From assembly GCF_053078305.1 (NCBI RefSeq), contig NZ_CP166875.1: DNA of 64,000 bases. The stretch is one strand, 5' to 3'. The first letter of the stretch is position 1, and every line of letters starts with the position of its first letter. This document shows, one piece after another, positions 42,891 to 64,000 of this stretch. Both the position numbers and the translations under genes were made by a program. This stretch comes from a plasmid. The notes beneath the pieces were generated by a model. It was not told where the DNA came from. It made no database searches and worked only from the letters and a program-made list of their open reading frames with translations.

Positions 42891-43472
42891 TTATTTATAA
42901 AACGTTGCAATTTTAGCATCATTTTTTATTGTTCTTTTTAACCTGAAGTACGTCGATCGAGAGATACCTGTTTTTTCTGTCACACTGCCCAGAGATTCTC
43001 CCTGTGATATAAGCTCCAACGCTGTAGGCGTTCGTGGATGCTTCTTCCTGCCAAATTTTACGCCTGCGGCAAGTGCCGCTATTCTTCCGTCGTTTGTCCG
43101 CTCCAGAATACGCTCACGTTCCGCTTCAGCTACAGCAGCAAGGATTTGGATAACCATTTTGCCCATTGTCCCTTCTGTACTGAGACCGTTCTCCAGGAAC
43201 CGGATGGCGATCCCCTTTTTGTAACAGCTATCAACCACACGAATCATGTCAGCAGTGTTACGCCCCAGTCGGTCCATTTTTGTACAGATGATTACGTCGT
43301 CTTTCTCTGCACGGGCCAACAACCGCTGTAGTCCTTCCCGTTCATCAGTTGCGCCAGTCATCATATCCGTAAAAATACGATCTTCCCGTACCCCGGCATT
43401 TTTTAGCTCCGAGATTTGATGTGTTAGCTTCTGATGACTGGTTGATACCCGTGCATACCCCAATAACGCCAT
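42891..43472 (-). CDS. tnpR: serine-recombinase resolvase TnpR
   Basis: MALLGYARVSTSHQ catalytic Ser motif, C-terminal HTH. Confidence 0.85.
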   Translation of the reverse strand: MALLGYARVSTSHQKLTHQISELKNAGVREDRIFTDMMTGATDEREGLQRLLARAEKDDVIICTKMDRLGRNTADMIRVVDSCYKKGIAIRFLENGLSTEGTMGKMVIQILAAVAEAERERILERTNDGRIAALAAGVKFGRKKHPRTPTALELISQGESLGSVTEKTGISRSTYFRLKRTIKNDAKIATFYK

Positions 43473-43484
43473 TTTTAGTCTCAC

Positions 43485-43628
43485 TTATCGTTTTTGACAC
43501 TGCATGGTATCATAATGTACAAAATACGATTTTTGAAACCTGCTTTTATGCTGTTTTAGACAGGTATCAGATATCTTAATATTTGATACTAGCCATATTT
43601 AACAAATATTTAGCATTTTGGTAAATGT
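43485..43628. promoter_or_regulatory. res site region between tnpR and tnpA
   Basis: divergent intergenic region with TGTC..GACA-type dyads. Confidence 0.5.
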
Positions 43629-46600: not shown

Positions 46601-46667
46601 CAGTCTTTTGGAGGGAGTAGACCCACTAAGTGATATCGGAGATATTGAGTCCGAATATGACGGTTAA
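43629..46667 (+). CDS. tnpA: Tn3-family transposase TnpA
   Basis: 1012 aa, AT-rich, typical size for the family. Confidence 0.9.
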   Translation: MQKYKKRISILTKSEINELYQVPSFNPVERDEFFSLDISLKREIDKIINIESRVYLILITGYFRYKPVIPEFTLKDVKRDVKYIIQTYYKNESTNLNLNIPKSTKYRLVKRMLSTLGFEQLTPSIKNELSERLNDVATICMEPKYIFDELLAFLGQRRIALPGYSTVQNLVSDALNFERKRTINILSKRIYPATAQKITSIIHDDGILNSIRGYNYSTRDFSASEIENELRTHNVISSIYYEIKDIINSLGISQGNMEYYATIVKHSTTFRLKRHPKWQGILYLCCYLYFRYREINDKIITAFRYLVKKHKDASVLFAKARATEEIDLINKKLKFASKIFNFFVDSNIEDSIPFGYVREKVFSLISKDDMHLVSEFFDKNKIDVIEYQWQYIDSHHLKIANSIRKLFLAIDIVYDNEKSVIGQQITAAKDDLRGKGKLDAKDLRVIHPSEKNYIVKEGEINTQRFEFHMYSRVSNHLENGVFYAAESEQNKRLEDDLIERSYWHKNKSILIEKTGLERLITPITQTLNELENTFSDKLARITIGINSDANEFVKKQPHSNRLQWSLASKKWKTSIDNPIYNQIKNIGIVDVMKYVNNETNFLSVFNAISSRKNNLEADYNDLLACIFGNGANYGVHRMASASDRSIGILRDVNDKFIRPETTGMANTVISDAIANLSVYKYWTINEDSPFGSVDGQKHTCRINTFKARYSAKYFRKGKGVSAMTLVSNHVPLSTVVISPNEYEGHFAFDLLYNNTSEIQPKSLATDNHGINNVNFAILDIFGYQFSPRYAKFKKIFNELFDVILESDKLIIKLKKQFNFKLIEHEWENIQHIICSLSRKTTIQSTVVKKLSNTKRSNKTLAALREYDRVIKCIYVLDYADNKTLRQFVQQALNRGEAYHQLRRAIASVNGNQFRGGNDYQIDQWNDCARLIANCVIYYNSAILSRLVEKFEKENNKKAIDVLANLSPVAWRHILLGGNYSFEDQVAITNLDSLLEGVDPLSDIGDIESEYDG

Positions 46668-46733
46668 CAACATGATAAATAATGGTTTTTATGCTAAGAG
46701 TGAGACTTTTGGAGGAAATGGGCGCAGAACCCC

Positions 46734-46957
46734 TGTATCTGCCGTTCGGTTTTTGCACGAAGTTTTTCTGAGCTTTTACCGAACTGCATACGTTGCAGTT
46801 TCGCAACCAGCGCCTTCAGCCGGTTGATTTCGGAAGCATAAGCCGCCACCCGCTGTGAGAGCAGGCGGTTGTATTCAGCCATCTGGCGGATGGTGTCCTG
46901 TTGCGTCTGCAACAGTGCCCGCAGGCGGGCGTTCTCATGAGCAAGTGAGGTGTCCAT
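46734..46957 (-). pseudogene. IS66-family TnpC N-terminal fragment truncated by Tn3-family insertion
   Basis: leucine-zipper N-terminus MDTSLAHENARLRALL...; ORF ends at Tn IR. Confidence 0.7.
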
Positions 46958-46976
46958 ATCCTCACTTTACAACGGG

Positions 46977-47324
46977 TTATATGCGGATTCCAGCGCGTTC
47001 CGTTCGTTTCGGGTGCTTCCAGTTGATACCTTCAAGAAGCATGGATAACTGAGCCGGAGTAAGGTGCACCTTGCCGTCACGGGTGACTGGCCAGACGAAG
47101 CGGCCCCGCTCCAGGCGTTTGGTGAAGAGGCACAGTCCGTCACTGTCAGCCCACAACACTTTTATCTGGTCACCCCGGCGTCCGCGGAAGATGAACAGGT
47201 GTCCGGAGAACGGGTCATCCTTCAGGACGTTCTGAACTTTTGATGCCAGGCCGTTAAAGCCATTTCGCATATCGGTGATACCTGCAACCAGCCAGATACG
47301 CGAACCTGCAGGGAGAGATATCAT
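46977..47324 (-). CDS. IS66-family TnpB (orf2)
   Basis: 115 aa, typical IS66 orf2 size and sequence. Confidence 0.8.
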   Translation of the reverse strand: MISLPAGSRIWLVAGITDMRNGFNGLASKVQNVLKDDPFSGHLFIFRGRRGDQIKVLWADSDGLCLFTKRLERGRFVWPVTRDGKVHLTPAQLSMLLEGINWKHPKRTERAGIRI

Positions 47325-48001
47325 CAGTGGCTGCTCCCTTTTATTTCGCGGATAAGTGTCTGTAATAACGCCGGCGTCAGTTTACCTTTAAGCCTGAGAG
47401 TTCCGGCCGGCAGAACCAGCTCACAACACAGACTGTCGGACGGTGTATTTATCTGCTCTGGTTCCTGTGCGGGGGCCGGGATTTTATTATCCGGCTCCGG
47501 CGTTAACGTCACGGGAAGCAGTGCCGGCATATTTTTTCCGGAAGGCAGCAGGCCACCTTTCCGGTATTGATGGCGCCAGTTGAAGAGCAGGTTATCGTTG
47601 ATTCCGTTTTCCCGGGCGATCTGCGCCACACAGGCTCCGGGCTGCAGTGACTGCTCCACTAAGGCGATTTTAAACTCATAAGGGAAGTTGGGCCGCCGGG
47701 GACGTTTTTTTACCACGGGGGCTTCGGATATAACGGTGCTTTCAGGACGTACGACTGGTACCGTGGAAAATTGTCCGTAAAGGCAGGCATCAAGTTCCTG
47801 CTCCGACATGCCTGCGGGCAAAGGCCACGAAAGGCCAGCTCTCCGAAAGCGCACGAACATACTACAAACTGTTGATTTTGGTACACCCAGGCGACGCCCG
47901 GCCACAACCCGGGGTAAATGTTCTTCAAAGTGAAGACGTAAAGCTTCAGTGATCCAGGTCCGGTGTTTCATACGATAGTGTCCATTAAAAATGATGGACA
48001 T
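47324..48001 (-). CDS. IS66-family TnpA (orf1)
   Basis: contains KRPRRPNFPYEFKIALVEQSL...LLFNWRHQYR HTH region; start uncertain. Confidence 0.7.
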   Translation of the reverse strand: MSIIFNGHYRMKHRTWITEALRLHFEEHLPRVVAGRRLGVPKSTVCSMFVRFRRAGLSWPLPAGMSEQELDACLYGQFSTVPVVRPESTVISEAPVVKKRPRRPNFPYEFKIALVEQSLQPGACVAQIARENGINDNLLFNWRHQYRKGGLLPSGKNMPALLPVTLTPEPDNKIPAPAQEPEQINTPSDSLCCELVLPAGTLRLKGKLTPALLQTLIREIKGSSH

Positions 48002-48329
48002 TATTTTTGTAGAGCCGGAGGAAACAGACCAGACGGTTTAAATGAGCCGGTTACAAACAAATTCGCTTCATAAATTTCATAGTGCAGACCACATCCCCAA
48101 TGAGCCTGCTTTTCCAGCCTGCTGATCACCACATCAGCCCGGATAACATCAAAGGGATTGCGGGAATGAATATTACGAATAAAGCCATCGGTACGTGCTG
48201 CTGACATATTTCTGCCCATCTTTAATACACCTCTGTTTTTTGCCCCCATCATCTGTTGAGTTTCGGGAGCCGCGGTTTTGACGTTTTGCGGGGACCTGCC
48301 TTTTGTTCCCTCCGGTATTCACCATCACC

Positions 48330-48720
48330 TGTTTGAGAACCTTCGCCGCAAGGGGCATCACTGCCACGGCCGGAAACGACTGTCCGGGGGCAGACCGCAA
48401 AAGTTTTTGCCTGCTTTTGGGCAAAAAGTTTTGCGGGATGTGCATTTCACCCCTGGACTGGCGGAGACGGTTGTGGCTGTCTTTGCCCCCGGCGACAGGG
48501 GCTTAAACAGGTGTATGGCACCGGACACAACAACGGGCAGGGACCCGCCGCAACGACGAAGAGCGCGTGCGCGAAACGGCGTTGCCCCTTACATCCCGGC
48601 GGCCTTTTGCCGGGATGCCAGGAGCGCAGGCCACGGCGCGACAGAGGCGGCGCGACCGGAACGGTCGCTGCAAGCCCGGGGTTTCGCGTCAGGGATGGAA
48701 GCCCGCCAGGGCGGAGACAG
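48330..48720. promoter_or_regulatory. GC-rich hairpin repeat, copy 1 (candidate Frpo/ssi-type single-strand element)
   Basis: homologous to 53740-54010; core GAGCGCAGGCCACGGCGCGACA.AGGCGGCGCGACCG...CGGTCGCTGCAAGCCCGG. Confidence 0.5.
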
Positions 48721-49078
48721 CTTCGCTGGCTCCGTTCACGACAGCCCGCCCCGCCTGGGGGACGCCCGGAAAAGGCATAAGCAGGAGAACAACAAAACAG
48801 ACAATAATCAGGGCAGCAGTAATCAGAGTCAGAACAGGAGGAAAAAGAGAATAATCAAAGGGAAGGTGATGTGATTTCCGACAGGTCATAAACAGAGAAG
48901 GCGGGGGAAAAGAACGGGCGCCGCAGGCGCGCGTTCATCCCCGTTCCCGGAGGGAATCGGCCTTCCTGGCAGTCTGGTTGTTCATGCTGCTGCAATGTCA
49001 GCAAGGAGAAAGGGGCCACCGGCGAACCAGCAGCCCCTTTATAAAGGCGCTTCAGTGCAGTCAGACCAGCATCAGCCC

Positions 49079-49104
49079 TGAAAAGGCGGGCCTGCGCCCG
49101 CCTC
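49079..49104 (-). terminator. rho-independent terminator of hok transcript
   Basis: GGCGGGCGCAGGCCCGCC hairpin followed by T-tract on - strand. Confidence 0.6.
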
Positions 49105-49111
49105 CAGGTTG

Positions 49112-49270
49112 CTACTTACCGGATTCGTAAGCCATGAAAGCCGCCACCTCCCTGTATCCGTCTCTGTAACGAATCTCGCACAGCGATTTTCGTGTCAGAT
49201 AAGTAAATATCAACAGTGTGAGACACACAATCAACACACACCAGACAAGAGAGCTGCGTGGTAGTTTCAT
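49112..49270 (-). CDS. hok: Hok host-killing type I toxin; overlapping mok frame extends to 49411
   Basis: [52 protein letters not shown]. Confidence 0.85.
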
Positions 49271-49544
49271 GGCCTTCTTCTCCTTGCGCAAAGCGCGGTA
49301 AGAGGCTATCCTGATGTTGTCAGACATATGGGATGCCTCGTGGGTTAATGAAAAATTAACTACGGGGCTATCTTCTTTCTGCCACACAACACGGTAACAA
49401 ACCACCTTCACGTCATGAGGCAGAAAGCCTCAAGCGCCGGGCACATCATAGCCCATATACCTGCACGCTGACCACACTCACTTTTCCTGAAAATAACCCG
49501 CTCATTCAGGCTGTTTACGGGTAATCTGTGTGATTGTTGCCGCA

Positions 49545-50264
49545 TCACGCCGCCTCCCGGAGTTTGTTCGGCACCATCCACCGCTCCATCTCACGGACAG
49601 CGTGACCCGCCTCCCTTGCTGCCATACCTGCCTCTGCGATGACCTGCCAGAATGGCATATCCTGCCACTGCCAGCGTTCCATCCCGGCCAGTGACGGAAA
49701 ACGCTCACCCCACTGCCAGAACAGGGTTTCCAGGTCATGCTCTGCCACCCGGTCACTCCAGCGTGCATACCAGCTTCCGACTGTTTCCGGTGAATGGAAC
49801 GCCAGTTCGATTTCAGCCTGAGCGACCAGCGTCTGGTACGCACGGGCTTTCTGCTCTGCCTCCCGTGCCTGCTGGCGGCTGTACTTCTGCATGACCAGCA
49901 CGGATTTATGGCGACTGCGTTCCCTGACACGGAACCGCACCGACGGGAACAACCGCTCTGCTGCATCACCGGGAAGGGGAAGGAGGCAGACCTCGCCCTG
50001 TGTTTCAATCAGCACATCGACGGCATACAGCCACTGAGAACGGTTGCCGCGCAGTTCTTCTGCGGTCAGGGACGGCATGAAAAATCGCAGGTCAGACAGC
50101 GAAATCCTGCGGCTTCCGTTCAGACAGCGGAAAAACGCCCCCGCATACGGATATTCCGCCAGCGTGTTACCCTGGTGGCGGCGTTTTTCTGTCTCCGCCA
50201 CCGCCCGCCATGCGGCCTGTTGCTCTGTGCTGAGAGGAACCAGTGCCTGTGAACGTGCGCTCAT
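49545..50264 (-). CDS. psiA: PsiA plasmid SOS-inhibition protein
   Basis: 239 aa matching remembered F PsiA. Confidence 0.9.
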
Positions 50265-50695
50265 GCCTGACCTCCTTCCGCCATCAGGATATGGATGATG
50301 TCACTGACGCTGTATCCCTGTTCATCCAGTGATGCCGCCAGTGCCAGTGAATGGCTGACAGCTTCCGGTGCAAACCGCCGCTGCACCTGAACCACCGCAA
50401 ACGGCTCACCACCGGCATTCACCAGAACCAGCACCCAGACCTGAGAGACATCGCCCGGTGAACATAACGCCAGGTGAAAACGTTCGTGGGCAGGCGTGAA
50501 ACGGACCTGGACGGGGAAAAAGCCGCCGAACTCGCTGCCGTACTCGCCATTCATCGTCCAGTTGTCCGGCGCATCCAGTTCCCGCATCACGGCGTGTGTC
50601 AGCTCACGGCGTTCATCACTTCCGGCAGCCCGGATATCTTCATATTCCTGTGCGCTCATGGTCTGTAATACATTCAGGGTCAGTTCAGTTTTCAT
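50261..50695 (-). CDS. psiB: PsiB RecA inhibitor
   Basis: [66 protein letters not shown] matches F PsiB. Confidence 0.9.
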
Positions 50696-50749
50696 CACGG
50701 TATCTCCCTTGCTGCCGCCCCGTCTCCGGCGGGGCGGTGTGGTTGTTCA

Positions 50750-52708
50750 TCAGGCGGCATCAGCCAGGTTATCGGCGCGTTCAGTGGCATCCGTCTGTGG
50801 ACGTGGTGAACCCATCCAGCCAGGCACCCAGCGGTTGTCTTTCATGTGGAACTCTGCATGTTCAGCGGCATCGCCTTTCTTCATCTTCTCCGCGTCCCGT
50901 GCGGCACCGGACAGTCCGGCATCATTCAGGGCATCGATAATCTGCGGCTTTTTCAGGTGACCGAAGAAGTTTGCTTTTGTCGGCTGCCACCAGTCACGCA
51001 TGTGAAAGCCGATGGCGCTCTCCAGCGAGTCCAGCGGACTGCGTGACGTGTGACCATACTCGCGGGTCTGAACGCCGTGGATGCTGCACGCGGTGCAGAA
51101 ACTGAGCAGTGATAACAGCACGTCCTGGCTGAGTGACAGGAACGTCGTCATGTCCCGTGCCCATCCCTCCGGTAACAGGGCAGCAAGACGGGCTTTTTCT
51201 GCCATCATCGCCATGAATGCGGCACCGTCCTTCCCCGATGGCGCATCGCTGGTCAGCGAATAATGTTTACATTCCAGGCTGATTTGTGCTGGTTTACTGT
51301 ACGCTCCGCTGCCAAACACATTCAGGCAGAGCGTCCATGCCAGCAGTGCCAGAGATTTGTCCGGTTGCTGCATGAGTGCCGCCTGGACTGCCAGCGTGCG
51401 TTCGGAAGACATTTTCGTCAGCAGTGGCAGACTGATTTCCTCCACTGACGCTTTCTCCTGCACCTGTTCCGTGCGGTCAGCGTCGTCAGTCACGTCATCT
51501 TCACTGCGCAACTGCACACCACGCTGGACACACACATTACCGTAACGCCAGGACACCACCACGCCACTTCCGGCACGCATCTCCGGCGTCCACGCCCTGA
51601 CCTTCGCCATGCAGTCAATCAGCTTCATTTCTGCTGCCAGCAGGTCAGATTCCTCACACTGGTTTTCCAGCGCGTCGTAACGCATCATCAGTTCGTTCAG
51701 GCGTTCTTCTTCTGCCTCCGTCAGCACCGCTTCCGGCTCCGGCAGGTTGCGGTATGCCCGGGAATCTTCACGGCACTCACCGACAGGCTCCATGCGTCCG
51801 GCGCACCATTCCCAGCCTTCGGCTTCCCGAAGGTGTTCAGCGACAGCCTGGAGTTTTTCCAGCAGGGCGGCATCGAGCGCCACGCAGTCCACATAGCCAC
51901 CCTCGTCATCGCTGAACAAATCAGTACGCAGTTCGTCAGGTGAGAAAGCATCAGCCCCCACGAAGCGGAATTTAGTGTTGTCCTTCACCGCCACTTCACT
52001 TTCCGTAATCAGATTGCGGATAACCCGCACATCCGGTTTACCGCCCCATCCTGACTGGCAGGCCGCTTCAAACACCTGCACCTGACGCGCGGTGTCGTTC
52101 TCCAGCGCCAGCGCCTGACAGTGCTCGGTGGTGATGCGGTCTTCTGCCAGCGCATCGAGGATGACAGGCGCAAGGTCTGCCAGTTTCAGCATTCGCTGAA
52201 CGTGGCGGGGCGAATAACCCAGCAAATCACCGATTTGTGCAGGTGTTTTGCCTTCCTGCGCCATTGCACGGAATCCGGCAATCTGTTCGGCAGGGTGCAT
52301 ATCCCGACGATGACCGTTCTCGGTCATCGATGCGGCAGTCGCCAGCTCCTGCGGAATGACCTTCACACGGACAGGCCAGTCAACCTGAATGATGTCACGC
52401 TCTGCCAGCATGTTGAGTGCTGCCAGTCGGCGACCACCTGCGGCGACACCGTAACGGTCACCTGGCAGGGCATGAACAACCAGATTCTGTAACAGGCCGA
52501 CACCTTTAATGGAGTCCGCCAGTTCGCTGACGGACTCCGCAGAATACGGCACCGTGCGCACATTCAGCGGAGACTTAATCAGCGAGGCCAGCGGCACGCT
52601 CACTTCCTCCGTCTGCGCCAGCAGGGCCGACAGGACTGTTTCCTGCGTTTTTGCAGGTTTACGGCTGGATTTACGCTCCGTTTTTGCCTTAGACTCTGTA
52701 ACTGACAT
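50750..52708 (-). CDS. ParB-like nuclease domain protein of leading region
   Basis: ~652 aa with N-terminal ParB/Srx fold motif; position between ssb and psiB as in F. Confidence 0.8.
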   Translation of the reverse strand: MSVTESKAKTERKSSRKPAKTQETVLSALLAQTEEVSVPLASLIKSPLNVRTVPYSAESVSELADSIKGVGLLQNLVVHALPGDRYGVAAGGRRLAALNMLAERDIIQVDWPVRVKVIPQELATAASMTENGHRRDMHPAEQIAGFRAMAQEGKTPAQIGDLLGYSPRHVQRMLKLADLAPVILDALAEDRITTEHCQALALENDTARQVQVFEAACQSGWGGKPDVRVIRNLITESEVAVKDNTKFRFVGADAFSPDELRTDLFSDDEGGYVDCVALDAALLEKLQAVAEHLREAEGWEWCAGRMEPVGECREDSRAYRNLPEPEAVLTEAEEERLNELMMRYDALENQCEESDLLAAEMKLIDCMAKVRAWTPEMRAGSGVVVSWRYGNVCVQRGVQLRSEDDVTDDADRTEQVQEKASVEEISLPLLTKMSSERTLAVQAALMQQPDKSLALLAWTLCLNVFGSGAYSKPAQISLECKHYSLTSDAPSGKDGAAFMAMMAEKARLAALLPEGWARDMTTFLSLSQDVLLSLLSFCTACSIHGVQTREYGHTSRSPLDSLESAIGFHMRDWWQPTKANFFGHLKKPQIIDALNDAGLSGAARDAEKMKKGDAAEHAEFHMKDNRWVPGWMGSPRPQTDATERADNLADAA

Positions 52709-52773
52709 AGTTAGTACCTCCCAAAACGGTAATAATGATTGTCTGCCGGACGCGTTCCCGTCCGGCACCTCTC

Positions 52774-53049
<276 letters not shown>

Positions 53050-53064
53050 TCACAGTCAGGCCAG

Positions 53065-53592
53065 TCAGAACGGGATATCGTCTGAAAATCCGTAATCCTC
53101 CCCCTCCGGCGGCTGAGGCTGAGGCTCGGGCTGCGCGGCCTTACGTCCACGGCCTTTCGTTTTCGCGCCACTTTTTTTCGTCGCGTCAGCACTCTGTGGC
53201 TGCCCATTCTGCTGAGGCTGCGGTTGTGCCTGAGCGTTCTGCTGTGGTGCAATCCCCAGCATCTGCATGGTGCCCGTGGTCTTAACAAGAATTTCAGTGA
53301 CGTAACGGGTGATACCGTTATCTTCCCAGCTACGGGTTCGGAGTTGCCCCTCGATATAGACCTGCGCGCCCTTGCGCAGATATTCACCAGCCACTTCCGC
53401 GAGCTTGCCGAACAGCACCACGCGGTGCCATTCCGTCTGCTCCCGCATCTCCCCCGTCTTTTTGTCGCGCCAGCTTTCTGATGTGGCCACCTGCAGGTTT
53501 GCCACTGCGCCCCCGTTGGGGATGTAACGGACCTCCGGATCATTGCCCAGACGCCCGACGAGGATGACCTTGTTGATACCACGTGCACTCAT
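53065..53592 (-). CDS. ssb: plasmid single-stranded DNA-binding protein
   Basis: [25 protein letters not shown]-fold; acidic C-terminal tail DDIPF. Confidence 0.9.
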
Positions 53593-53739
53593 GAGAACCT
53601 CCTGACTGAAAGATGTGAGATAAACCGGATACCGGAGACGGGACGTTCATATGCCCCTTCAGAGGAGCGAAAGCTCCTCCTGCCGTCCACTTCTTCGGGG
53701 TTTCTCCCCGCAGTGGACCTTTCCGATGGGGGCCCGTTT

Positions 53740-54010
53740 ACCGCCTCACGGGACAGCTGTCCGGGGGCGGACGCAAAATTTTTTGCCGGGTTCATGGCTA
53801 AAAATTTTGTGGCCGGTATATCTTCCCCTGGACTGATGGAACGGGAGGTGGTTACGTCTGCCCCCCGGAAAGTCCACAGCGGGAAACAGGCCGCAGAGGT
53901 GGCGGCAGAAGAGGAGCGCAGGCCACGGCGCGACAAAGGCGGCGCGACCGTTCCGGTCGCTGCAAGCCCGGGTTTTCACGCATCGGACCGTAGCGACAGC
54001 CCGAAACCGC
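53740..54010. promoter_or_regulatory. GC-rich hairpin repeat, copy 2, upstream of ssb
   Basis: homologous to 48330-48720. Confidence 0.5.
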
Positions 54011-54292
54011 GCCAGCGGGTTCGGCGGAGACTGGCGGGTGCGCCAGCAGTTGCCTGTCGGAGTCGGGCCTGACGACCGGATGCCGCCAGGCAGCCGGGAG
54101 CCGAAGGGGCGCATGTGTAAGAAGGTTCTTTAACGACAGGTCTGTAACAGGTACTTCCTGAAACAACGCCTGTCACCAACAGGAAGGGTAACGGGCGACG
54201 CGCCAGCGTGGCCCGCATCCCTTCCGGCAGGCGCCAGCCTGCCAGGGGTTTTCGCGCGGGCTGACAGGCGGCCTCCACCGCCTACCCCTGTA

Positions 54293-54484
54293 TCACCTGT
54301 GCCTGCTGCCCTGAAGGATGTAGTGACCACCGAGGAAAACCGCCTGCTGATTCGCCACAAAATCACAGATTTCATCAACAATCTGCGCGGTGGTGAGCGG
54401 TTTCTGCCCCATTTCACGACGCCGCGCATTAATCACGGCTTTGTAATTGCGCAGAATTTCGCGGGTTTCCGTGCTGATATTCAT
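54293..54484 (-). CDS. hypothetical small protein
   Basis: 63 aa ORF. Confidence 0.35.
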   Translation of the reverse strand: MNISTETREILRNYKAVINARRREMGQKPLTTAQIVDEICDFVANQQAVFLGGHYILQGSRHR

Positions 54485-54903
54485 TACCCGTTCTCCCCGT
54501 CCAGCGCCTGACGCATTACCCGCATAATCTCACGTTCTTCCCTGACAAATGCGTCACCGTCGCCCCCGTTCTCGCTCCCTACAGCATGGAGGCGATAAAT
54601 TTCACTACCAGCCATCACCATCACTTTTTCCAGCAGCACCGCAGGGACTGTTACAAGACGGTTTACGCGCTTTTCCTCCATCAGTTCATTGACAATATCG
54701 GAAACAACTCTGTCACATGCGCCATATACAAAAGCATCGTCCAGCCGCTGCATGACGGTTTCCAGCTCATCGTCTGACAGGTTCCAGTCCCGGGCTATGT
54801 GGCGCACATCCCCGCGGGTCAGCACCACGGCAAAAACACATTCACTGTCCGGCACGTCTGTATTCAGCACTTCGCGGATAATTTCTTTAACAGTACAGTA
54901 CAT
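54484..54903 (-). CDS. hypothetical acidic protein (paralog of 56437-56871)
   Basis: shared LSD.E..TV..RL.D and VTVPA.LL motifs with 56437-56871 product. Confidence 0.5.
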   Translation of the reverse strand: MYCTVKEIIREVLNTDVPDSECVFAVVLTRGDVRHIARDWNLSDDELETVMQRLDDAFVYGACDRVVSDIVNELMEEKRVNRLVTVPAVLLEKVMVMAGSEIYRLHAVGSENGGDGDAFVREEREIMRVMRQALDGENG

Positions 54904-54949
54904 GTTCTCGTCTCCTTTACAGGGGCGGCATTGCCGCCCCGTCCGTTAA

Positions 54950-55375
54950 TCAGTCCAGTGCCGCGTAAATCGCGTTACATTCGGGGTGAAATTCGATGTG
55001 GCTCCACAACTGCGCATCGCGCATCCGGTAAAGCTGGGTCAGTCCTGCATCCCCGCTGTCGTGGTACAGCCACAACTGGCGGTTAATCACAAGGGAAGTC
55101 AGGATGATACCTGCGGCATCAGCACTCACAGTGCGGTCAAACCAGTTTTCACCGTTGACCAGATGAAAACGGTCGCCATCCGGCATCATGTAACCGCCAC
55201 CGTCCGGCAGGCGGATGAAATGCCAGAAGCCTCCCTGATATTCCGGCATCATTTTTTGCGCCAGCGCGTACACATACGCCTCGGCATACAGAAAATCGTT
55301 GCCAAACAGGTAAGGCAGAAAGGAGAGACGGTCGCACTCTTCAACGTTCAGAGTGACAGATTTCGCATACTGCAT
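54950..55375 (-). CDS. klcA: KlcA/ArdB-family anti-restriction protein
   Basis: 141 aa from [30 protein letters not shown]; family assignment from memory. Confidence 0.6.
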
Positions 55376-55621
55376 GGGATTTCCTCCGTTGTTCACATAT
55401 TCCGCGACACCGGGCGGTGCCGTGCCTCCAGAAAAGCCGGGCGATAAGGCGGGGATGCAAGGGCGCAAGGGAAGCCGCAGCCTGACGCACACGGCTGGCG
55501 GGAGTTGGAGGGTGAGACCGCGAAATCTGAGCGGGTGAACGACCGGAAAATCACGGCAGACGGGAAGGAGGGACCGGGTGACCGCCGCGTGCATTTTACC
55601 CTTGCATCCCCGCCAGCGTCA

Positions 55622-56392
55622 TCATTTCCGGATTTTCGCCAGTGCATCCGCCATGCTGCGGATTTCATCCCGTGCCTCCAGAACAACCTCCCGCAGAATA
55701 TCCCTGTCAAACCAGCGACGGGACGGTTCATCCGGTATACGCAGCACATCACAGACCAGACCACTGGCCAGGATATGCTCCACACACTCACAGACCAGGT
55801 ACATTTCCACCGCCGAAAAACGGGCGCCACGGTTCAGAATGGCATCGAGCACCACGGGCAGATTTTCGTCATCTTCATCAAGCCAGCAGGGGTAATCGCT
55901 TTCCTTCACGACCAGACGAAAGCGGCGCGTCTGGCGGGTCAGCAACGTCTGACCGGTGGTGGTCAGCGCCGCCCGGATACGCCGCGTATCTTCTGCCACC
56001 TGGTAACAGATGCTTCGTACTGCATTGCGCACCGCATCAAGAACTGCCCTGATTTCTTCCTCCGTCAGCCATTCACCGGCATACGGGAAAGACACCTGCG
56101 TTCCGTCTGCCGGAAGTACCGGCAGCGCCTGCCACTGGCTGCCGGACAGAACAAGTTCCGCTCCGGTTCCGGTCAGTTTCTGAATGGCGGAGGCCAGGTG
56201 CGGCGGCAGTACGCCATCATGGCGGCTGATAAGTAACGTCGCCAGCCGGGATATATCCAGTCGCACATAAATGCTGATCCAGCCCGGATAGTGCGGATTC
56301 AGTTGTTCAATATCCGTCTCTTCCGGCCAGCCCTGCGCCAGCAGCAGGTTACGGGCGTGGCGACAAACCAGTGCATTCAGCGTTTTGTTCAT
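55622..56392 (-). CDS. hypothetical protein
   Basis: 256 aa ORF from MNKTLNALV. Confidence 0.45.
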
Positions 56393-56436
56393 GATTAATG
56401 GTCTCCCTGAATCGCCGCCCGAAGGCGGCGATAACA

Positions 56437-56871
56437 TCAGTCGTTTTCGTGTGTGTTGTTTTTCAGCAGGGCGCGGGCCTGATTAACCACCGCCTGACGG
56501 CGGGTGACGCATTCCGGGACGACGAGGCCGTTATCACGGGCGTCCCACTCACGTTTCCACAGTGCCTGTTCGGCGGTCTGAATCAGGGACGCCAGCAGTT
56601 CAGCCGGGACGGTCACCTGGCGGTTTTCGCTCACGTTGCTGATAATCTCCATCGCCACGCCGGAAGAAATACCGGACTCAGTCCGCTGGTCTTCCGGGAT
56701 GTCCTCCAGGCGCACCAGGACGGTCCTGATTTCATGATCGGACAGGGAAATATCCATTCCGTCAGCGAGGGCCTGAATCTCTTCCGGGGACCAGACAACC
56801 AGCATCAACGGCGTGTCTCCCGGATACTTTACTGCCAGCGCCCGGCAGAGCGTTTCGCATGTTCCGTACAT
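56437..56871 (-). CDS. hypothetical acidic protein (paralog of 54484-54903)
   Basis: 144 aa, shared motifs with 54484-54903 product. Confidence 0.5.
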
Positions 56872-56882
56872 ACTCTCTCCCC

Positions 56883-57104
56883 TCAATCTTTGAAGCAGGA
56901 ATCCAGTTCCAGAATTTCGGTATATGCCTCCATCAGGAGGCGGTTTGCGCGAAACAGCGTCTGACGCACCAGACGTTCCGGCAGGGTGTCAGCATTAAAG
57001 CTGTACCGCCGCTCCATCTCATTCATGGTTGTACGCAGGTCGCACATGGCATTGGCCACCTCCGCCACTTCGGCGCGAAGGTTTTCATGTCCGGCATAGT
57101 TCAT
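56883..57104 (-). CDS. hypothetical small protein
   Basis: 73 aa ORF. Confidence 0.35.
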   Translation of the reverse strand: MNYAGHENLRAEVAEVANAMCDLRTTMNEMERRYSFNADTLPERLVRQTLFRANRLLMEAYTEILELDSCFKD

Positions 57105-57788
57105 TTACGCAGCCTCCGGCATAAACCAGTCATCATTTGCGGCCCCCTGCTGCATGGCCCGCTGTACGGCAGCCAGACGTTGCTGTCCGGCACGGTGATA
57201 CTGCTCAAGCAGCTCGATACCGATATACCGGCGTCCGGACTGGAGGGCGGCGACGCAGGTTGAGCCGCTGCCTGCAAACGGGTCCAGCACAATCGCGTTC
57301 GGATGTGTGAAGCTCTCAATCAGTGGTTGCAGGCTGGTAACGGGCTTTTCCGTCGGGTGATGGCGGTTGCCCGAATATTTCCAGCCCAGCACATCCGGCA
57401 GCGGGTTACGGGGCCGGGCCGGACTGCCCTTTGCCAGGATGTAAGCGCATTCGTGGCGGTACGCGACATACACAGATTTGGATGTGTAGTTTTTGGTGAA
57501 GACCAGGTGCCCAACCACGCTGAATCCGGCGCGTTTCCAGGCCGCCATAAAGCGGTCAATACGGTGCCAGCCGTAGAAGCTGACCATCAGCGCGTCTTTT
57601 TTGAGTACGCGGTACATCTCATTGCTGGCAGGTTGCAGCCAGTCATCATTAACGTCACCGGCAATGGTGCGCCCGGAACGGTCACGGAAACCGACGAGAT
57701 ATGGCGGATCGGTTAATATGAAATCAATGGCGTTATCAGGAATCGTGGCCATAACACGCACGCAGTCACCCAGGATAAAACGGGACAT
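57105..57788 (-). CDS. orphan N6-adenine DNA methyltransferase
   Basis: DPPY catalytic motif, FAGSGSTCVAA AdoMet-binding motif, no adjacent restriction enzyme. Confidence 0.8.
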   Translation of the reverse strand: MSRFILGDCVRVMATIPDNAIDFILTDPPYLVGFRDRSGRTIAGDVNDDWLQPASNEMYRVLKKDALMVSFYGWHRIDRFMAAWKRAGFSVVGHLVFTKNYTSKSVYVAYRHECAYILAKGSPARPRNPLPDVLGWKYSGNRHHPTEKPVTSLQPLIESFTHPNAIVLDPFAGSGSTCVAALQSGRRYIGIELLEQYHRAGQQRLAAVQRAMQQGAANDDWFMPEAA

Positions 57789-58171
57789 AACAGCTCCTTC
57801 TCTTACAGAGGGCACCGGGAGGGCACCCCTGTGGTGCCCGTTCCCCGCTGCCTGTGGGCTGTACACCGCGTCCGGTAACGGGTCAGGCCGACCGTGGAAT
57901 ACCGCAGCCGTCGTCTTTTTGACGGCAAGGTTATGCCGCGAAAGCGGCTTGAAGGGCGTTCATCAGAAAAGGGCGACGGGCTGGCGTACACTGTCACCGA
58001 CGCCAGCCGGGAGCGGTAAAAGCGCCCGTCCCGTGCCCGGCCGGACGCGGGACACTGACCACAGGCAGCGTTTATGCCGCGCCGCATCAGCCGGCGCAGT
58101 AAAAAGAGGAGCACAGCGACATCCTTTACCGGAAAAGAAACGGGCGGTTGCCCGCCCGTCTCCGTCATACT

Positions 58172-59098
58172 TCATCCGCCATAATGCGCCACCTTGTCGA
58201 CTATCCACGCAGGTCCGGTGACTTCCGGCAGCTCATCGTCATCTGTCGGGGAAGACCATTCCAGTTCCCCCCACAGCACATCAACGAGCTCTCCGCGCTC
58301 ATACAACTGCCAGCCACAGAAATCACAGCCCTGTTCGGCATACCAGTGCTCCAGCGTGCAGCTGAAACGGCGGCTTAATTCTGCAATAACGTCGCTTTCC
58401 GGCTGACACCACGGCGTGTCGAAATCAACCTGAATGAAGTTGTCTCCCTGACTACTGATATTCACCTCATACCCCACAGGCCACTTCACGCCATACCGTT
58501 CCGTATACCAGTGATATGCAGAAGGAACACCGTTCAGAACACCACCGTTAAAGCCATTCACTTCAACATCCAGGCGGGTCGGCAGAACCGTCAGCAGGTC
58601 AAACGGCATGGTTTTTTCCGGCAGTACGTTGTCACACAGACGGTTCCACCACACCGATACATCCTCGTTACTCCAGAAGCCACACCAGTCACCTCTTTTT
58701 GCGGTGAAAAGTGCGGTGATGGTATCCCTGACATCGTCCGGTAATCCTTTCCAGCGACGCTGTCCAGTACCGCTCTGCAGCCAGAGTTCATGCAGCATCA
58801 GGCAGTTTTGCTCATCCAGCAGTACACCGTCCTGCAGGTGTGTCAGCCAGCGGGTGAACGCGATATTCTCCGGCGATACAACGCCACGTCCGGCAGCCGT
58901 CAGTCCGGGGCATGGTTCAAACCGCACATCTTCAGTGGTCTGCAGAAGTCCGGCACTTCCGGCCAGAAACAGCTGAATACCTTCATTTGTGGCGCGGCGA
59001 TAAAGCGGTGTGACTGCACCGCTGGCCAGTCGTTTAATCTCAGCAATCTGTGCCGGTTCACCAGAAAAATGCATACGATTTGAGCACCAGTTTGGCAT
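58172..59098 (-). CDS. hypothetical Cys/Trp-rich protein
   Basis: 309 aa from MPNWCSNRMHF; no recognised catalytic motif. Confidence 0.45.
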   Translation of the reverse strand: MPNWCSNRMHFSGEPAQIAEIKRLASGAVTPLYRRATNEGIQLFLAGSAGLLQTTEDVRFEPCPGLTAAGRGVVSPENIAFTRWLTHLQDGVLLDEQNCLMLHELWLQSGTGQRRWKGLPDDVRDTITALFTAKRGDWCGFWSNEDVSVWWNRLCDNVLPEKTMPFDLLTVLPTRLDVEVNGFNGGVLNGVPSAYHWYTERYGVKWPVGYEVNISSQGDNFIQVDFDTPWCQPESDVIAELSRRFSCTLEHWYAEQGCDFCGWQLYERGELVDVLWGELEWSSPTDDDELPEVTGPAWIVDKVAHYGG

Positions 59099-59450
59099 GG
59101 GAATTCTCCTCTCACATGCGGCCTCCATCAGGCCGTGCCGCACCTGTAACCGGGCGACCGCATACGAATGCAGGTGCGGCCCCGAAGCCGCATCGCGTGG
59201 AGGAGGAACGACGAAACGTGACCGGGTGAGGAGGCTGGCGACAGCGACACACTTGCATCGGATGCAGCCCGGTTAACGTGCCGGCACGGCCTGGGTAACC
59301 AGGTATTTTATTCACAGAACCGTGCGCAAAATGCTGTGGATAAGCTGGACACAGCAGTCCACAGCAGGCATACAGCCACCCCCTCAGAGAATTGAGCGTT
59401 TTTTAGTCACAATAATGACATTTGACTGTGTGGATTCAGTTATTAGAATG

Positions 59451-59466
59451 CTGTATATACATACAG
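59451..59466 (+). promoter_or_regulatory. LexA box CTGTATATACATACAG upstream of impC
   Basis: matches CTGT-N8-ACAG SOS box consensus. Confidence 0.75.
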
Positions 59467-59489
59467 CAATAGAAAAGGGAGATGAGAAC

Positions 59490-59738
59490 ATGATCCGCAT
59501 TGAAATTCTTTTCGACCGCCAGAGCACAAAAAACCTCAAATCAGGCACACTTCAGGCGCTACAGAATGAAATCGAACAACGTCTGAAACCACACTACCCG
59601 GAAATCTGGCTGCGTATAGACCAGGGCAGCGCCCCGTCTGTATCTGTCACAGGAGCCCGCAACGACAAGGATAAAGAACGTATCCTGTCTCTGCTGGAAG
59701 AAATCTGGCAGGACGACAGCTGGCTGCCTGCAGCATGA
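59490..59738 (+). CDS. impC: ImpC
   Basis: 82 aa MIRIEILFDRQSTKN...; first gene of impCAB. Confidence 0.75.
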   Translation: MIRIEILFDRQSTKNLKSGTLQALQNEIEQRLKPHYPEIWLRIDQGSAPSVSVTGARNDKDKERILSLLEEIWQDDSWLPAA

Positions 59739-60172
59739 GTACCGTTTATCACCGTCCGGCTGACCCTTCAGGCGATGACAGTTACGTGCGACCGTTGTTT
59801 GCCGATCGTTGCCAGGCCGGTTTTCCTTCGCCTGCCACTGATTATGCTGAGCAGGAACTGGATCTGAACAGCTATTGCATCAGCAGACCTGCAGCCACCT
59901 TCTTTCTGCGCGCCAGCGGTGAATCGATGAACCAGGCTGGCGTGCAGAATGGTGATCTGCTGGTAGTGGACAGGGGCGAAAAACCACAACACGGGGACAT
60001 CGTTATCGCTGAGATCGACGGTGAGTTCACCGTCAAACGACTGCTGTTGCGCCCACGCCCGGCACTGGAGCCGGTTTCAGACAGCCCGGAATTCCGCACA
60101 CTGTATCCGGAAAACATCTGTATTTTTGGTGTTGTCACTCACGTGATACACAGGACGCGGGAGTTACGCTGA
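59735..60172 (+). CDS. impA: ImpA/UmuD-like self-cleaving mutagenesis protein
   Basis: 145 aa, LexA-like S24 peptidase motif GESM...K. Confidence 0.85.
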   Translation: MSTVYHRPADPSGDDSYVRPLFADRCQAGFPSPATDYAEQELDLNSYCISRPAATFFLRASGESMNQAGVQNGDLLVVDRGEKPQHGDIVIAEIDGEFTVKRLLLRPRPALEPVSDSPEFRTLYPENICIFGVVTHVIHRTRELR

Positions 60173-61446
60173 TGTTTGCACTGGCTGATATCAACAGTTT
60201 CTACGCCTCATGTGAAAAAGTTTTCCGCCCGGACCTTCGCAACGAACCGGTCATCGTACTCAGCAATAACGATGGCTGTGTGATCGCGCGCAGCCCGGAG
60301 GCAAAAGCCCTTGGCATCAGAATGGGGCAGCCCTTGTTTCAGGTGAGACAAATGCGCCTGGAGAAGAAAATACATGTATTTTCCAGCAATTATGCGCTGT
60401 ACCACAGCATGAGCCAACGGGTCATGGCTGTTCTGGAGTCGCTTTCTCCCGCAGTTGAGCCCTACTCAATTGATGAAATGTTTATTGATTTGCGGGGGAT
60501 AAATCATTGCATCTCTCCGGAGTTTTTTGGTCATCAGCTCAGGGAACAGGTAAAGAGCTGGACAGGACTCACCATGGGGGTGGGCATTGCGCCTACAAAA
60601 ACGCTGGCTAAAAGTGCACAGTGGGCAACAAAGCAATGGCCACAGTTTTCCGGTGTGGTCGCGCTGACGGCAGAAAACCGTAATCGGATCTTGAAGCTAC
60701 TGGGACTGCAGCCAGTTGGTGAGGTCTGGGGAGTAGGACACAGACTGACGGAAAAGCTGAATGCGCTGGGTATTAACACAGCACTGCAGCTGGCGCAGGC
60801 TAACACGGCATTCATCCGGAAAAACTTCAGCGTCATTCTTGAGCGTACGGTACGCGAACTCAACGGCGAGTCCTGCATATCCCTGGAAGAAGCACCACCG
60901 GCAAAACAGCAGATTGTCTGTAGTCGCAGTTTTGGTGAACGAATCACAGACAAAGATGCCATGCACCAGGCTGTTGTTCAGTATGCAGAGCGGGCCGCAG
61001 AGAAACTACGTGGGGAGCGTCAGTATTGCCGGCAGGTGACGACATTTGTACGGACATCCCCCTTTGCAGTAAAAGAACCCTGTTACAGCAATGCCGCTGT
61101 GGAAAAGCTTCCATTGCCCACACAGGACAGCCGGGACATTATTGCCGCCGCATGCAGAGCCTTAAACCATGTCTGGCGTGAAGGGTACCGCTATATGAAG
61201 GCAGGAGTCATGCTGGCTGATTTCACACCATCGGGTATAGCGCAGCCGGGATTATTTGATGAAATCCAGCCCCGTAAAAACAGTGAAAAGTTAATGAAAA
61301 CACTCGATGAACTGAACCAGTCGGGAAAAGGGAAAGTGTGGTTTGCGGGGCGAGGAACCGCCCCTGAATGGCAAATGAAACGGGAAATGTTGAGTCAGTG
61401 TTATACAACTAAATGGCGAGATATTCCCCTGGCCAGGCTGGGTTAG
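60172..61446 (+). CDS. impB: ImpB/UmuC-like Y-family DNA polymerase
   Basis: 424 aa, MFALADINSFYASCE N-terminus typical of UmuC. Confidence 0.85.
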   Translation: MFALADINSFYASCEKVFRPDLRNEPVIVLSNNDGCVIARSPEAKALGIRMGQPLFQVRQMRLEKKIHVFSSNYALYHSMSQRVMAVLESLSPAVEPYSIDEMFIDLRGINHCISPEFFGHQLREQVKSWTGLTMGVGIAPTKTLAKSAQWATKQWPQFSGVVALTAENRNRILKLLGLQPVGEVWGVGHRLTEKLNALGINTALQLAQANTAFIRKNFSVILERTVRELNGESCISLEEAPPAKQQIVCSRSFGERITDKDAMHQAVVQYAERAAEKLRGERQYCRQVTTFVRTSPFAVKEPCYSNAAVEKLPLPTQDSRDIIAAACRALNHVWREGYRYMKAGVMLADFTPSGIAQPGLFDEIQPRKNSEKLMKTLDELNQSGKGKVWFAGRGTAPEWQMKREMLSQCYTTKWRDIPLARLG

Positions 61447-61447
61447 T

Positions 61448-61864
61448 TCAGTCATCTCCGAACATATTTTCAGCGTTTCTTCTGGTCTGGTCTTCACCGT
61501 CATTTCTCGACAGACTCTGCTCTGTAAGAGGAGTACTGCAATCCACAGACGTATGGAGACCAGATTGTTTTTCCAGTAATTCAAGCAATTTCTTTTCAAC
61601 CGAAAAAGCACCTGGTATCACGCTGGAAATCACCTTATTAATATCATCCAGAGTCGTATTTTCTGTCAGTAACTCCGATATCAGCAAAGGAAGACGTTTA
61701 TCTATAGCTGCAAACGCCGCACCAGTAACTAACATCGCGCGCATGAAACGTCCCCGCTCCTTCAGTTTTTCATTTGCAATGAGCTCATCTGCTATCTTAT
61801 CTCCTGTCCGTTCATCCGGGAAAAGTTCAAATGAGCAGCGTCTGGATTTATTTTCATCACTCAT
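61448..61864 (-). CDS. parR: ParR/StbB centromere-binding adaptor
   Basis: 138 aa downstream of parM, similar to R1 ParR. Confidence 0.7.
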   Translation of the reverse strand: MSDENKSRRCSFELFPDERTGDKIADELIANEKLKERGRFMRAMLVTGAAFAAIDKRLPLLISELLTENTTLDDINKVISSVIPGAFSVEKKLLELLEKQSGLHTSVDCSTPLTEQSLSRNDGEDQTRRNAENMFGDD

Positions 61865-62837
61865 TAGTCACACCACCTTTCATTTTTATCATTCCCATGA
61901 CTAAATCAAACTGCGGGGATGAGCTCAGATAAAAGCGCTCATCAGGAACCTTAGTCAGGTTCTTCACAGCCTCGGCCACAATTTCAGCCCCACCACCAAC
62001 ACACATTACATGTGTATAGTCGGTGAAACGGCTGATGACATCATTAACTCGTTTAATAAGCAACTTCTGCCGTTCATTGATAACATTAATGATAGACTCA
62101 CGCTGTTCAGCATTATAAATGCGACGGGAAAGGTAGTCAGGTTCATTACGGTGCACAATGATATTGTCAGCCTGGAATGAGCTCACTCTTGTATTAGCAT
62201 GTACAGCCATCTGTTCCTTAACCCCGGATGTAATCAGGGACACGCCGATATTCGGATCACACCAGGTTTTTGTAATCCCTGTCATTTTGCTACGAACATG
62301 CGACACATCAAGAGTTGTACCACCGAGATCTACGATCAAAAGGGATTCATCATCCTCAAGCCCCGCAAGAACACTGAAACCAGCGGGAATACTTTCAGGA
62401 AGAACGGAAACACTGCGAATAACAAATGCATCACTCCCCTGCACCCGTACTTCACGCATCACATTTTTTTTCTTTCTTTCAATGTTTTGCTTATTTTTCT
62501 GATTGTTGGCGTCAAGGTATTCAGAGATCGGCAATGTGACGATGACATCAACAGGCTGCGCTTTCAGGCCGGTCTGCTGTAGCGCATGCTGAATGGCCAC
62601 AACATTCACATCACTGTACTGATAGCGTGTTTCAGTCGTTACGACAGCATCAGCACTTAATGGATCAAATGAAAACTTCTCGCCGTCGATCTCGTAATTA
62701 GCCGGGGCAGCATCATCCAGTAAACTAAAAGACCATTCCGGTTTAAAGCTGTTAGGGCTGATTAACGTTTTCACGTCACCATCCTCCAACCAGGCAAGTT
62801 TAATGTTGGTAGAACCATCATCAATAAAGATTTTCAT
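61857..62837 (-). CDS. parM: ParM/StbA actin-like segregation ATPase
   Basis: MKIFIDDGSTNIKLAW... clear similarity to R1 ParM. Confidence 0.85.
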   Translation of the reverse strand: MKIFIDDGSTNIKLAWLEDGDVKTLISPNSFKPEWSFSLLDDAAPANYEIDGEKFSFDPLSADAVVTTETRYQYSDVNVVAIQHALQQTGLKAQPVDVIVTLPISEYLDANNQKNKQNIERKKKNVMREVRVQGSDAFVIRSVSVLPESIPAGFSVLAGLEDDESLLIVDLGGTTLDVSHVRSKMTGITKTWCDPNIGVSLITSGVKEQMAVHANTRVSSFQADNIIVHRNEPDYLSRRIYNAEQRESIINVINERQKLLIKRVNDVISRFTDYTHVMCVGGGAEIVAEAVKNLTKVPDERFYLSSSPQFDLVMGMIKMKGGVTNE

Positions 62838-63100
62838 AACCAGTCTCCGTTGCTCATAAACAAATAGAAAAAACAAACATGCTTCATACATGCAATGTAT
62901 ATTTAATTATAATGAAAAAATGGTCTTTCTGAAAGGAGAAATACAACATAAAAACACGATAAATTGCATGTGCATTGTACACACAACTTTAAGACCAGAG
63001 GAAATCATAGATACAAAAACATTATGAAGGTTATATGTAATACATAAATGCAATATAAAAACATCTTTGACATCATGGTTCAGGTTAAGGGAAAAGGAAT
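62838..63100. promoter_or_regulatory. candidate parC-like centromere/promoter region
   Basis: AT-rich region upstream of parM with reiterated ATGCAAT/ACATGC motifs. Confidence 0.35.
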
Positions 63101-63250
63101 GACATGGTGAAACTGAGAGGAAAGGAAAGCGGTGACGAATCATGTCACCATAAACAGAAAGATGTCTAATGGGGACTCTTTAGGTACGTGAAGAATCCCC
63201 ATAACGCATTTAAAAGACACACATCAGATACCCTTAAGGTATCCGATAGT

Positions 63251-63559
63251 TTATTGACCTATTGCACCATCACGTTCAAGCTTCTCTCTTATAGCCTCAA
63301 TAATATATGAGCTAAAATCCAGAGATGTTTTACTGGTCGCTTTAAGTTCCGCATGAGCTTCAAAATACGACAGCGGTATGGCCTTAAGATTCTTAGCCTT
63401 CGTCCTGGCAGCCACGGGACGACCTGAAACTTCCTCTGCACCTTCATTTGGCTGAGACGGGGCTGTTGCTGTTACGGCAGAAGAAGAAGTTTGTAATCTG
63501 GCAGAATCCACCAGGTTTTTCAGTTTTTCAGCCTGTGCACTAAATTTCGCTTTGCTCAT
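63251..63559 (-). CDS. candidate ribbon-helix-helix partition protein (ParG-like)
   Basis: 102 aa, C-terminal pattern consistent with RHH fold; inference only. Confidence 0.35.
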   Translation of the reverse strand: MSKAKFSAQAEKLKNLVDSARLQTSSSAVTATAPSQPNEGAEEVSGRPVAARTKAKNLKAIPLSYFEAHAELKATSKTSLDFSSYIIEAIREKLERDGAIGQ

Positions 63560-63645
63560 GAGATAACCAAGGATGTTTGTTAGATACTTAAAAGATATCC
63601 ATTAAAAGCCCAAAGGATACTATATGGATACCCAATAGATACACC

Positions 63646-64000
63646 TTACTGTTTGTTATTTTCAATCAGATGATTGATTTCTTCGATCAGGGCAATAACT
63701 TCCTTACCTCCTGCCGAATAGCGCCCATGAACAGACTCAGTGATTCCCATCCCAGTCTCAATGACATCCTCAAATTCTGCACGAGCAGAAATGCGGCTCT
63801 TCATCAGTTTCAGATGTTTGAACGATGGCAGGATTGCATCAAGCTTAGGGAATTTCTTCTTGTTAGGATTAACTTTACAGAGATACAGGTGAGCAGTTAT
63901 ATCGGTCCCCATGATAGAGCTGATTTCGTCCAGTACTCCATCAAAATGCATCAAACCAATACGTTCAGTCAGGGAGTCTTTTGAAGGGACAATAACGCAG
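63646..64000 (-). CDS. candidate ParA-type ATPase, C-terminal part (N-terminus outside window)
   Basis: C-terminal sequence pattern resembles ParA/ParF; open to window edge. Confidence 0.35.
   Translation of the reverse strand, partial: CVIVPSKDSLTERIGLMHFDGVLDEISSIMGTDITAHLYLCKVNPNKKKFPKLDAILPSFKHLKLMKSRISARAEFEDVIETGMGITESVHGRYSAGGKEVIALIEEINHLIENNKQ

Follow-up and report, generated by a model that had tools for sequence, protein, structure and literature searches.

An orphan adenine methyltransferase, very probably an orthologue of M.EcoGIX, in a leading-type block inverted relative to the transfer genes of an F-like IncFII plasmid

An adenine methyltransferase gene that lies among leading-type genes of a plasmid, with no restriction partner beside it, raises two questions, namely what such an enzyme does for the plasmid and whether the copy at hand is placed where it could do so. 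Both were addressed here for a gene in a 64,000-nt stretch (hereafter the window) of the plasmid contig NZ_CP166875.1 (RefSeq assembly GCF_053078305.1), which belongs to an F-like IncFII plasmid. The initial annotation of a DPPY-motif, adenine-type methyltransferase at 57105-57788 was confirmed with exact coordinates. The protein matched the Pfam family PF01555 (N6_N4_Mtase) over residues 21-201 (E = 2.2e-38; 132.9 bits, cut-off 26.7) and the NCBIfam model NF010253 (PRK13699 plasmid DNA methyltransferase) from end to end (484.9 bits, cut-off 244; residues 1-227 aligned with profile positions 1-226), and both matches are far above chance. The motif order DPPY, HPTEKP, FAGSGS is that of the beta-class amino-methyltransferases (Table 1). 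An identical 227-aa protein is already present in NCBI under the name "DNA methylase", and no second methylase copy was found in the 64-kb window. A longer, GTG-started reading of the gene (to 57866) was rejected, as it enters the hairpin upstream and fits neither M.EcoGIX, at 227 aa, nor the gene calls of related loci, and two plus-strand antisense ORFs (57137-57310 and 57303-57716) were judged to be by-products of the GC-rich coding region.

Table 1. Features of the methylase locus and of the end of the leading-type block (positions in the window)
Feature	Position	Strand	Remarks
Truncated ISCro1 (IS66 family)	46732-48230	minus	tnpA 47324-48001, tnpB, first 87 codons of tnpC
YchA-like ORF	55622-56437	minus	256-271 aa; last ORF before the klcA/ardB promoter region; syntenic with pESBL Hp11/YchA
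DUF1380 protein, third operon gene	56437-56886	minus	PF07128, E = 9.8e-53; same position in pESBL
73-aa YubE-family ORF	56883-57104	minus	PF27407 (precomputed Pfam on the identical locus L003); equals pESBL Hp9
Orphan beta-class N6-adenine DNA methyltransferase	57105-57788	minus	227 aa, ATG (57788) to TAA (57105)
FAGSGS, SAM-binding motif I	57261-57278	minus	aa 171-176; aligned to the same motif in CcrM 6pbd
HPTEKP motif, conserved in beta-class enzymes	57342-57359	minus	aa 144-149; aligns with HPTQKP of CcrM
DPPY, catalytic motif IV	57699-57710	minus	aa 27-30
Methylase ribosome-binding site AAGGAG	57794-57799	minus	5 nt before the ATG; conserved in alignments
Long imperfect hairpin, predicted equivalent of the class 3 ssDNA promoter	57789-58171	plus	383 nt; template strand, must be single-stranded
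DUF1281 (Api92-like) gene, upstream of the hairpin	58172-59143	minus	PF06924 and PF18406; no PADLOC match; not a nuclease

Comparison with nine homologues yielded dN/dS values of 0.06-0.14 with dS up to 0.47, and the DPPY and FAGSGS motifs were retained in all nine, indicating at the level of sequence comparison that purifying selection acts on the gene, which is no pseudogene. At least 5000 PLSDB plasmids carry a homologue, as do 3367 of the 5426 complete E. coli genomes (~60%), where 4569 places are on plasmids and 54 on chromosomes; the identity of the gene was only 80-90% in 4014 of the best 5000 PLSDB records. Among divergent relatives, no segment of the neighbourhood has diverged more than the methylase (87-89% nucleotide identity, compared with 94-98% for the hairpin and the DUF1281 gene), whose amino acid changes there cluster at residues 5-21, 46-55, 75-86, 105-109, and 122-128, a pattern that could reflect allelic exchange or adaptation of DNA-contacting parts.

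The claim that the enzyme is an orphan without a restriction partner also held. The eight neighbouring ORFs at 54293-59143 gave zero matches to the PADLOC defence models, their Pfam families being DUF1281, DUF1380 (twice), and ArdB/KlcA antirestriction, no endonuclease of the kind expected for a Type II restriction-modification system adjoins the methylase, and the same nuclease-free gene order was repeated in all related loci inspected. PADLOC does place the full-length protein under its Type II methyltransferase models (PDLC03228), as would suit a restriction-modification methylase parted from its endonuclease, which would lie elsewhere or have been lost. Given this neighbourhood, and given that the enzyme, by analogy with its characterised relative, leaves double-stranded DNA unmodified and so could not shield a host from a cognate nuclease (PMC7736820), that explanation is considered extremely improbable.

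The gene downstream of the methylase begins directly after its stop codon (TAAATG), which suggests translational coupling between the methylase and the 73-aa ORF. The YchA-like ORF at the end of this series gave no family match in Pfam, PADLOC, or NCBIfam. Further downstream, 1.5 kb from the methylase, the klcA/ardB ORF (54950-55594) was called with 214 aa, compared with 141 aa in its homologues, and is probably over-extended; the sequence upstream of it (55382-55617) shares 88.9% identity with that directly preceding ardA in another plasmid (L004, 19279-19505), a likeness that fits the published class 2 ssDNA promoters common to klcA and ardA. On the other side of the locus, the impCAB operon (59322-61446) encodes a DinI-like protein, a UmuD-related S24 peptidase, and a Y-family polymerase and is encoded on the other strand from the leading genes, an arrangement also seen in IncI1 plasmids; its ImpC ORF of 138 aa (82 aa in homologues) is probably over-extended as well.

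The nature of the enzyme becomes clearer from its likeness to M.EcoGIX of pESBL-EA11 (NC_018659.1, 54782-55465), with which it shares 216 of 227 residues (95%) without gaps (E = 4e-171). All 11 substitutions lie between residues 5 and 106, and none falls in DPPY or FAGSGS. For comparison, the M.EcoGIX homologues YfbB of R64 and YfeA of F are 94% and 91% identical to it, respectively (Yamaichi et al., PMC4288162). The likeness extends to the neighbourhood, in that the window and pESBL have in common impCAB (on the opposite strand), DUF1281, a gap of ~380 nt, the methylase, the 73-aa ORF, and DUF1380, followed by YchA, klcA/ardB, two small ORFs, ssb, DUF905, parB, psiB, and psiA. The NF010253 match, the identity, the motif order, the operon and its neighbourhood, and the upstream hairpin (in both sequence and predicted fold) all point to the M.EcoGIX family. 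As such, the gene is very probably an orthologue of M.EcoGIX, that is, a beta-class anti-restriction (establishment) methylase of IncI-/IncF-type conjugative plasmids. The substrate, specificity, timing, and protective effect of the window allele would then be those described in the literature for its 95%-identical relative.

For M.EcoGIX itself, deletion reduced plasmid transfer up to 1000-fold when the recipient carried EcoRI or EcoGIII, and ~9-fold when it was a Klebsiella strain (Yamaichi et al., PMC4288162). The enzyme was described as a promiscuous m6A methyltransferase that modifies ~40% of the sites in the context SAY on one strand only (Fomenkov et al., PMC7736820); it works on single-stranded DNA, does not modify double-stranded DNA, and associates with DNA polymerase I, and changing its DPPY motif to APPA abolishes its effects (PMC7736820). 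The target specificity had initially been regarded as unknown for the window gene, a view that is outdated if the orthologue is a guide, since M.EcoGIX places m6A with a preferred SAY context (PMC7736820). The adenines protected by M.EcoRI (GAATTC) and by PstI-type methylases (CTGCAG), sites that occur 6 and 54 times in the window, respectively, are outside the strict SAY context. The protection that M.EcoGIX is reported to give against EcoRI and EcoGIII, an enzyme with the PstI site, therefore implies a specificity broader than SAY. Orphan methylases are among the most prominent functions in the gene families enriched in leading regions (PMC11541004).

Two roles had been proposed for the gene in the initial annotation, the pre-methylation of incoming DNA and the alteration of recipient gene expression. 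The first stood in part. Protection by methylation has been demonstrated for the 95%-identical M.EcoGIX (PMC4288162, PMC7736820), but it is not done ahead in the donor. Inversion of oriT in pESBL abolishes the protection conferred by M.EcoGIX (PMC7736820), which means that the recipient must make the enzyme from the strand that enters. The M.EcoGIX operon was among six operons strongly induced within 15 minutes after transfer in a 2025 study (PMC12672017).

The second role found no support, as SAY sites in both plasmid and host are left unmodified in the native context (PMC7736820). A mainly epigenetic function of the Dam or CcrM kind, in which plasmid or recipient genes are regulated, would suit an orphan enzyme whose closest relative of solved structure by sequence is the regulatory CcrM (6pbd, E = 1.2e-17), and a study of how plasmids counter restriction raised possible regulatory roles of plasmid methylases in its discussion (PMC11602122). 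Nevertheless, the protein scored far below the CcrM equivalog cut-off (89.9 against 830 bits), lacks the C-terminal part of CcrM, and is shorter in the segment aligned at residues 101-139; furthermore, double-stranded DNA is not a substrate of M.EcoGIX (PMC7736820), and deletion of its gene left plasmid stability and host growth unchanged (PMC4288162). Regulation as the main role is thus judged highly improbable. A different selected function, interference with competitors whose replication passes through single-stranded or PolI-dependent intermediates (ColE1-type plasmids and filamentous phage, for instance), is suggested by the observation that active M.EcoGIX and M.BceJIII lower the copy number of ColE1/p15A plasmids and suppress M13 while catalytic mutants do not (PMC7736820). 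These effects were, however, seen under artificial constitutive expression, natural expression is only transient after transfer (PMC12672017), and the knock-out phenotype that was measured is restriction sensitivity (PMC4288162), so that interference is regarded as very unlikely to be what the gene is selected for. The anti-restriction function remains the preferred reading, and its significance, namely that resistance plasmids are helped across restriction barriers, is already established in the literature on the family.

Early expression of this kind calls attention to the region upstream of the gene. When the plus strand of 57789-58175 was folded as single-stranded DNA, it gave -110.8 kcal/mol compared with -78.3 ± 4.8 kcal/mol for shuffled sequences (z = -6.8), and none of the 100 shuffles was as stable. 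The hairpin is 97.6% identical to the region upstream of M.EcoGIX in pESBL, where a transcription start was mapped by 5' RACE and the element was named a class 3 ssDNA promoter (PMC12672017); the hairpin of this class is conserved in F as well (PMC12672017). Among the best 5000 PLSDB records, 4883 carried it at 95-99% identity. In paired loci the hairpin was 95-98% identical where the methylase gene was 87-89%, and its divergence was far below that of the synonymous sites of the methylase, so in divergent relatives the hairpin is markedly more conserved than the gene that it drives. Covariation analysis of 12 sequences found 97.8% of the cells paired and one compensatory pair in 125, a minimal support because the element hardly varies. 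No sigma-70 double-strand promoter was found in 56800-59400 at 9 of 12 consensus positions, and by these simple consensus criteria no -35/-10 hexamers were found within the hairpin at 9/12 or at the relaxed 8/12.

In most public records, the hairpin region is annotated as a "hypothetical protein" of ~100 aa. This annotation is probably wrong and the hairpin non-coding, because 1-nt indels occur at three positions of the element among the 12 sequences, gene callers differ on whether its ORF has 70, 103, or 121 aa, and the 121-aa reading had no match in NCBIfam or PADLOC.

Taken together with the published work, the sequence features suggest the following course of events. The transferred single strand would enter the recipient, where the long hairpin upstream of the methylase would fold into a promoter usable by the host RNA polymerase on single-stranded DNA, and the methylase-YubE-DUF1380-YchA operon would be transcribed within minutes. 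The methylase, apparently together with DNA polymerase I, would then place promiscuous m6A on the single strand, preferring SAY and modifying ~40% of such sites. Once the complementary strand had been made, many restriction sites would be hemimethylated and escape cleavage. With the DNA double-stranded, the promoter would fall silent and the DNA would no longer be a substrate, which would explain why donors show no SAY methylation. For the copy in the window, the early-expression step may fail, the block being inverted relative to the F-type tra operon.

This inversion is evident from the gene order. The genes for TraB, TraC, TraD, TraI (1756 aa), FinO, and RepFII all lie on the plus strand (407-38581), and the leading-type block lies on the minus strand, running from parM (61857-62891) through the methylase, ssb, and psiB to psiA (49545-50264) and hok (49112-49411). 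By contrast, 14 further contigs that share this TraB or TraP have psiB, psiA, hok, DUF932, traM, and the tra genes co-oriented, with oriT between them, and in NZ_CP129254.1 the orientation of the methylase relative to finO/repA is the opposite of that in the window. No oriT or traM homology was found within the 64-kb window, and homology to canonical leading regions ends at 48234. There, the truncated ISCro1 ends the block after hok and adjoins a Tn3-family transposon (42891-46667 and its end; resolvase 42891-43484, transposase 43629-46667), by which it was cut at ~46732. The block is thus joined to the RepFII side of the plasmid via the truncated ISCro1 and the Tn3-family transposon, and no record in PLSDB or among the complete E. 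coli genomes spans the junction between these two elements. A single match of 100% was retrieved, to JPQG01000008.1, which covers 47105-64000 of the window and whose retrieved part stops short of oriT. The leading-type context noted in the initial annotation is accordingly upheld for the gene set by homology, but the block runs opposite to the tra operon, and mobile elements separate it from oriT; within the window, which is part of the plasmid, it neither adjoins oriT nor is co-oriented with tra, as a leading region would be.

A hok/mok-type locus (PF01848) follows psiA at 49112-49411, as in F-like plasmids, and pESBL has a 198-aa ORF and ardA instead; since hok replaces these, the block is a mosaic of IncI-like and IncF-like leading regions. 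Repeats upstream of ssb (53913-54112) and downstream of hok (48234-48684), 83-96% identical to copies in other plasmids, lie where class 1 Frpo/ssi single-stranded promoters have been described in F and ColIb-P9.

What the orientation means for transfer depends on the strand that enters first. During transfer of F, the strand that has been nicked moves out 5' to 3', away from traM, and is the template from which the leading genes are transcribed. From this exit and the orientation of the tra genes, the strand transferred from an F-type oriT would be the minus strand of the window, which is the sense strand of the methylase and not its template. If an F-type oriT is the sole oriT, the window copy would not be transcribable from the entering strand, a geometry that resembles, by analogy, the inverted-oriT constructs that lost protection.

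It is therefore worth asking whether the window copy is functionally stranded, entering late and as the non-template strand, unexpressed from single-stranded DNA, and giving little or no protection, in which case it would be a hitch-hiking relic or be useful only after recombination into another backbone. The opposite strands of the transfer and leading-type genes, the co-orientation in the 14 contigs and the contrary arrangement in NZ_CP129254.1, the lack of oriT/traM homology in the window, the end of the block in a truncated ISCro1 at a junction without a database match, and the loss of protection on oriT inversion in pESBL (PMC7736820) all speak for it. On the other hand, oriT lies outside the window and a second oriT may be present elsewhere on the plasmid, a second, correctly oriented methylase may lie beside an F-type oriT, and the contig may be misassembled across repeats. 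In addition, the gene is undamaged, and identical copies occur in IncI/K-type contexts with the normal arrangement, so any stranding would be recent. On balance, stranding is possible but doubtful. It bears on this copy and does not conflict with the anti-restriction function of the family, which is the reading kept here.

A more specific form of the idea, rather unlikely and slightly less favoured than stranding itself, is that the plasmid is a natural counterpart of the laboratory inverted-oriT constructs, in which an intact block (methylase, klcA, ssb, psiB, and psiA with their ssDNA promoters) was flipped and carried away from oriT by transposons. If so, the hairpin promoters would be on the wrong strand during transfer and the plasmid would be unusually restriction-sensitive and SOS-prone on entry, and the flipped hairpins might give rise to antisense RNA or provide new sites at which synthesis of the complementary strand is primed. 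The orientation of the block, which should disable early methylase expression, would make a natural experiment of modest interest and is the sole unusual aspect of the locus; the methylase is already known and well characterised through M.EcoGIX, and the window copy adds no new biology.

Among other known systems, CcrM (PDB 6pbd) and E. coli YhdJ are beta-class N6-adenine enzymes with an N-terminal DPPY and a C-terminal HPT(Q/E)KP...FxGxG arrangement like that of the window methylase. CcrM differs in being a 366-aa chromosomal regulator specific for GANTC, whose chain extends further at the C-terminus and is longer in the central segment, and the window methylase also fell far below the YhdJ equivalog cut-off (NF008572; 79.5 against 292 bits). 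The missing C-terminal part and the shorter segment at residues 101-139 would fit an enzyme of low specificity. ArdA and ArdB/KlcA of the same leading regions share the purpose and the timing of the methylase family (zygotic induction from ssDNA promoters), but they are non-enzymatic inhibitors acting mainly against Type I systems, whereas the methylase family consists of enzymes that mask sites by methylation and have been shown to counter Type II enzymes. Phage orphan methyltransferases such as M.EcoGII are likewise orphans by which a mobile element evades restriction through low-specificity adenine methylation; these phage enzymes, the non-specific adenine methylase M.EcoGII among them, act on double-stranded DNA. 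M.BceJIII of the Burkholderia cenocepacia plasmid pBCA072 belongs to the same beta-class family and shares single-strand SAY m6A and association with PolI (PMC7736820); it comes from a distant host and plasmid. The closest counterpart is M.EcoGIX of the IncI1 plasmid pESBL from E. coli O104:H4, which has the same 227-aa length, motifs, and flanking genes and a nearly identical upstream hairpin, and from which the window differs in its IncFII/F-type rather than IncI1 backbone and in its block, which runs opposite to the transfer genes and is cut short by ISCro1 after hok.
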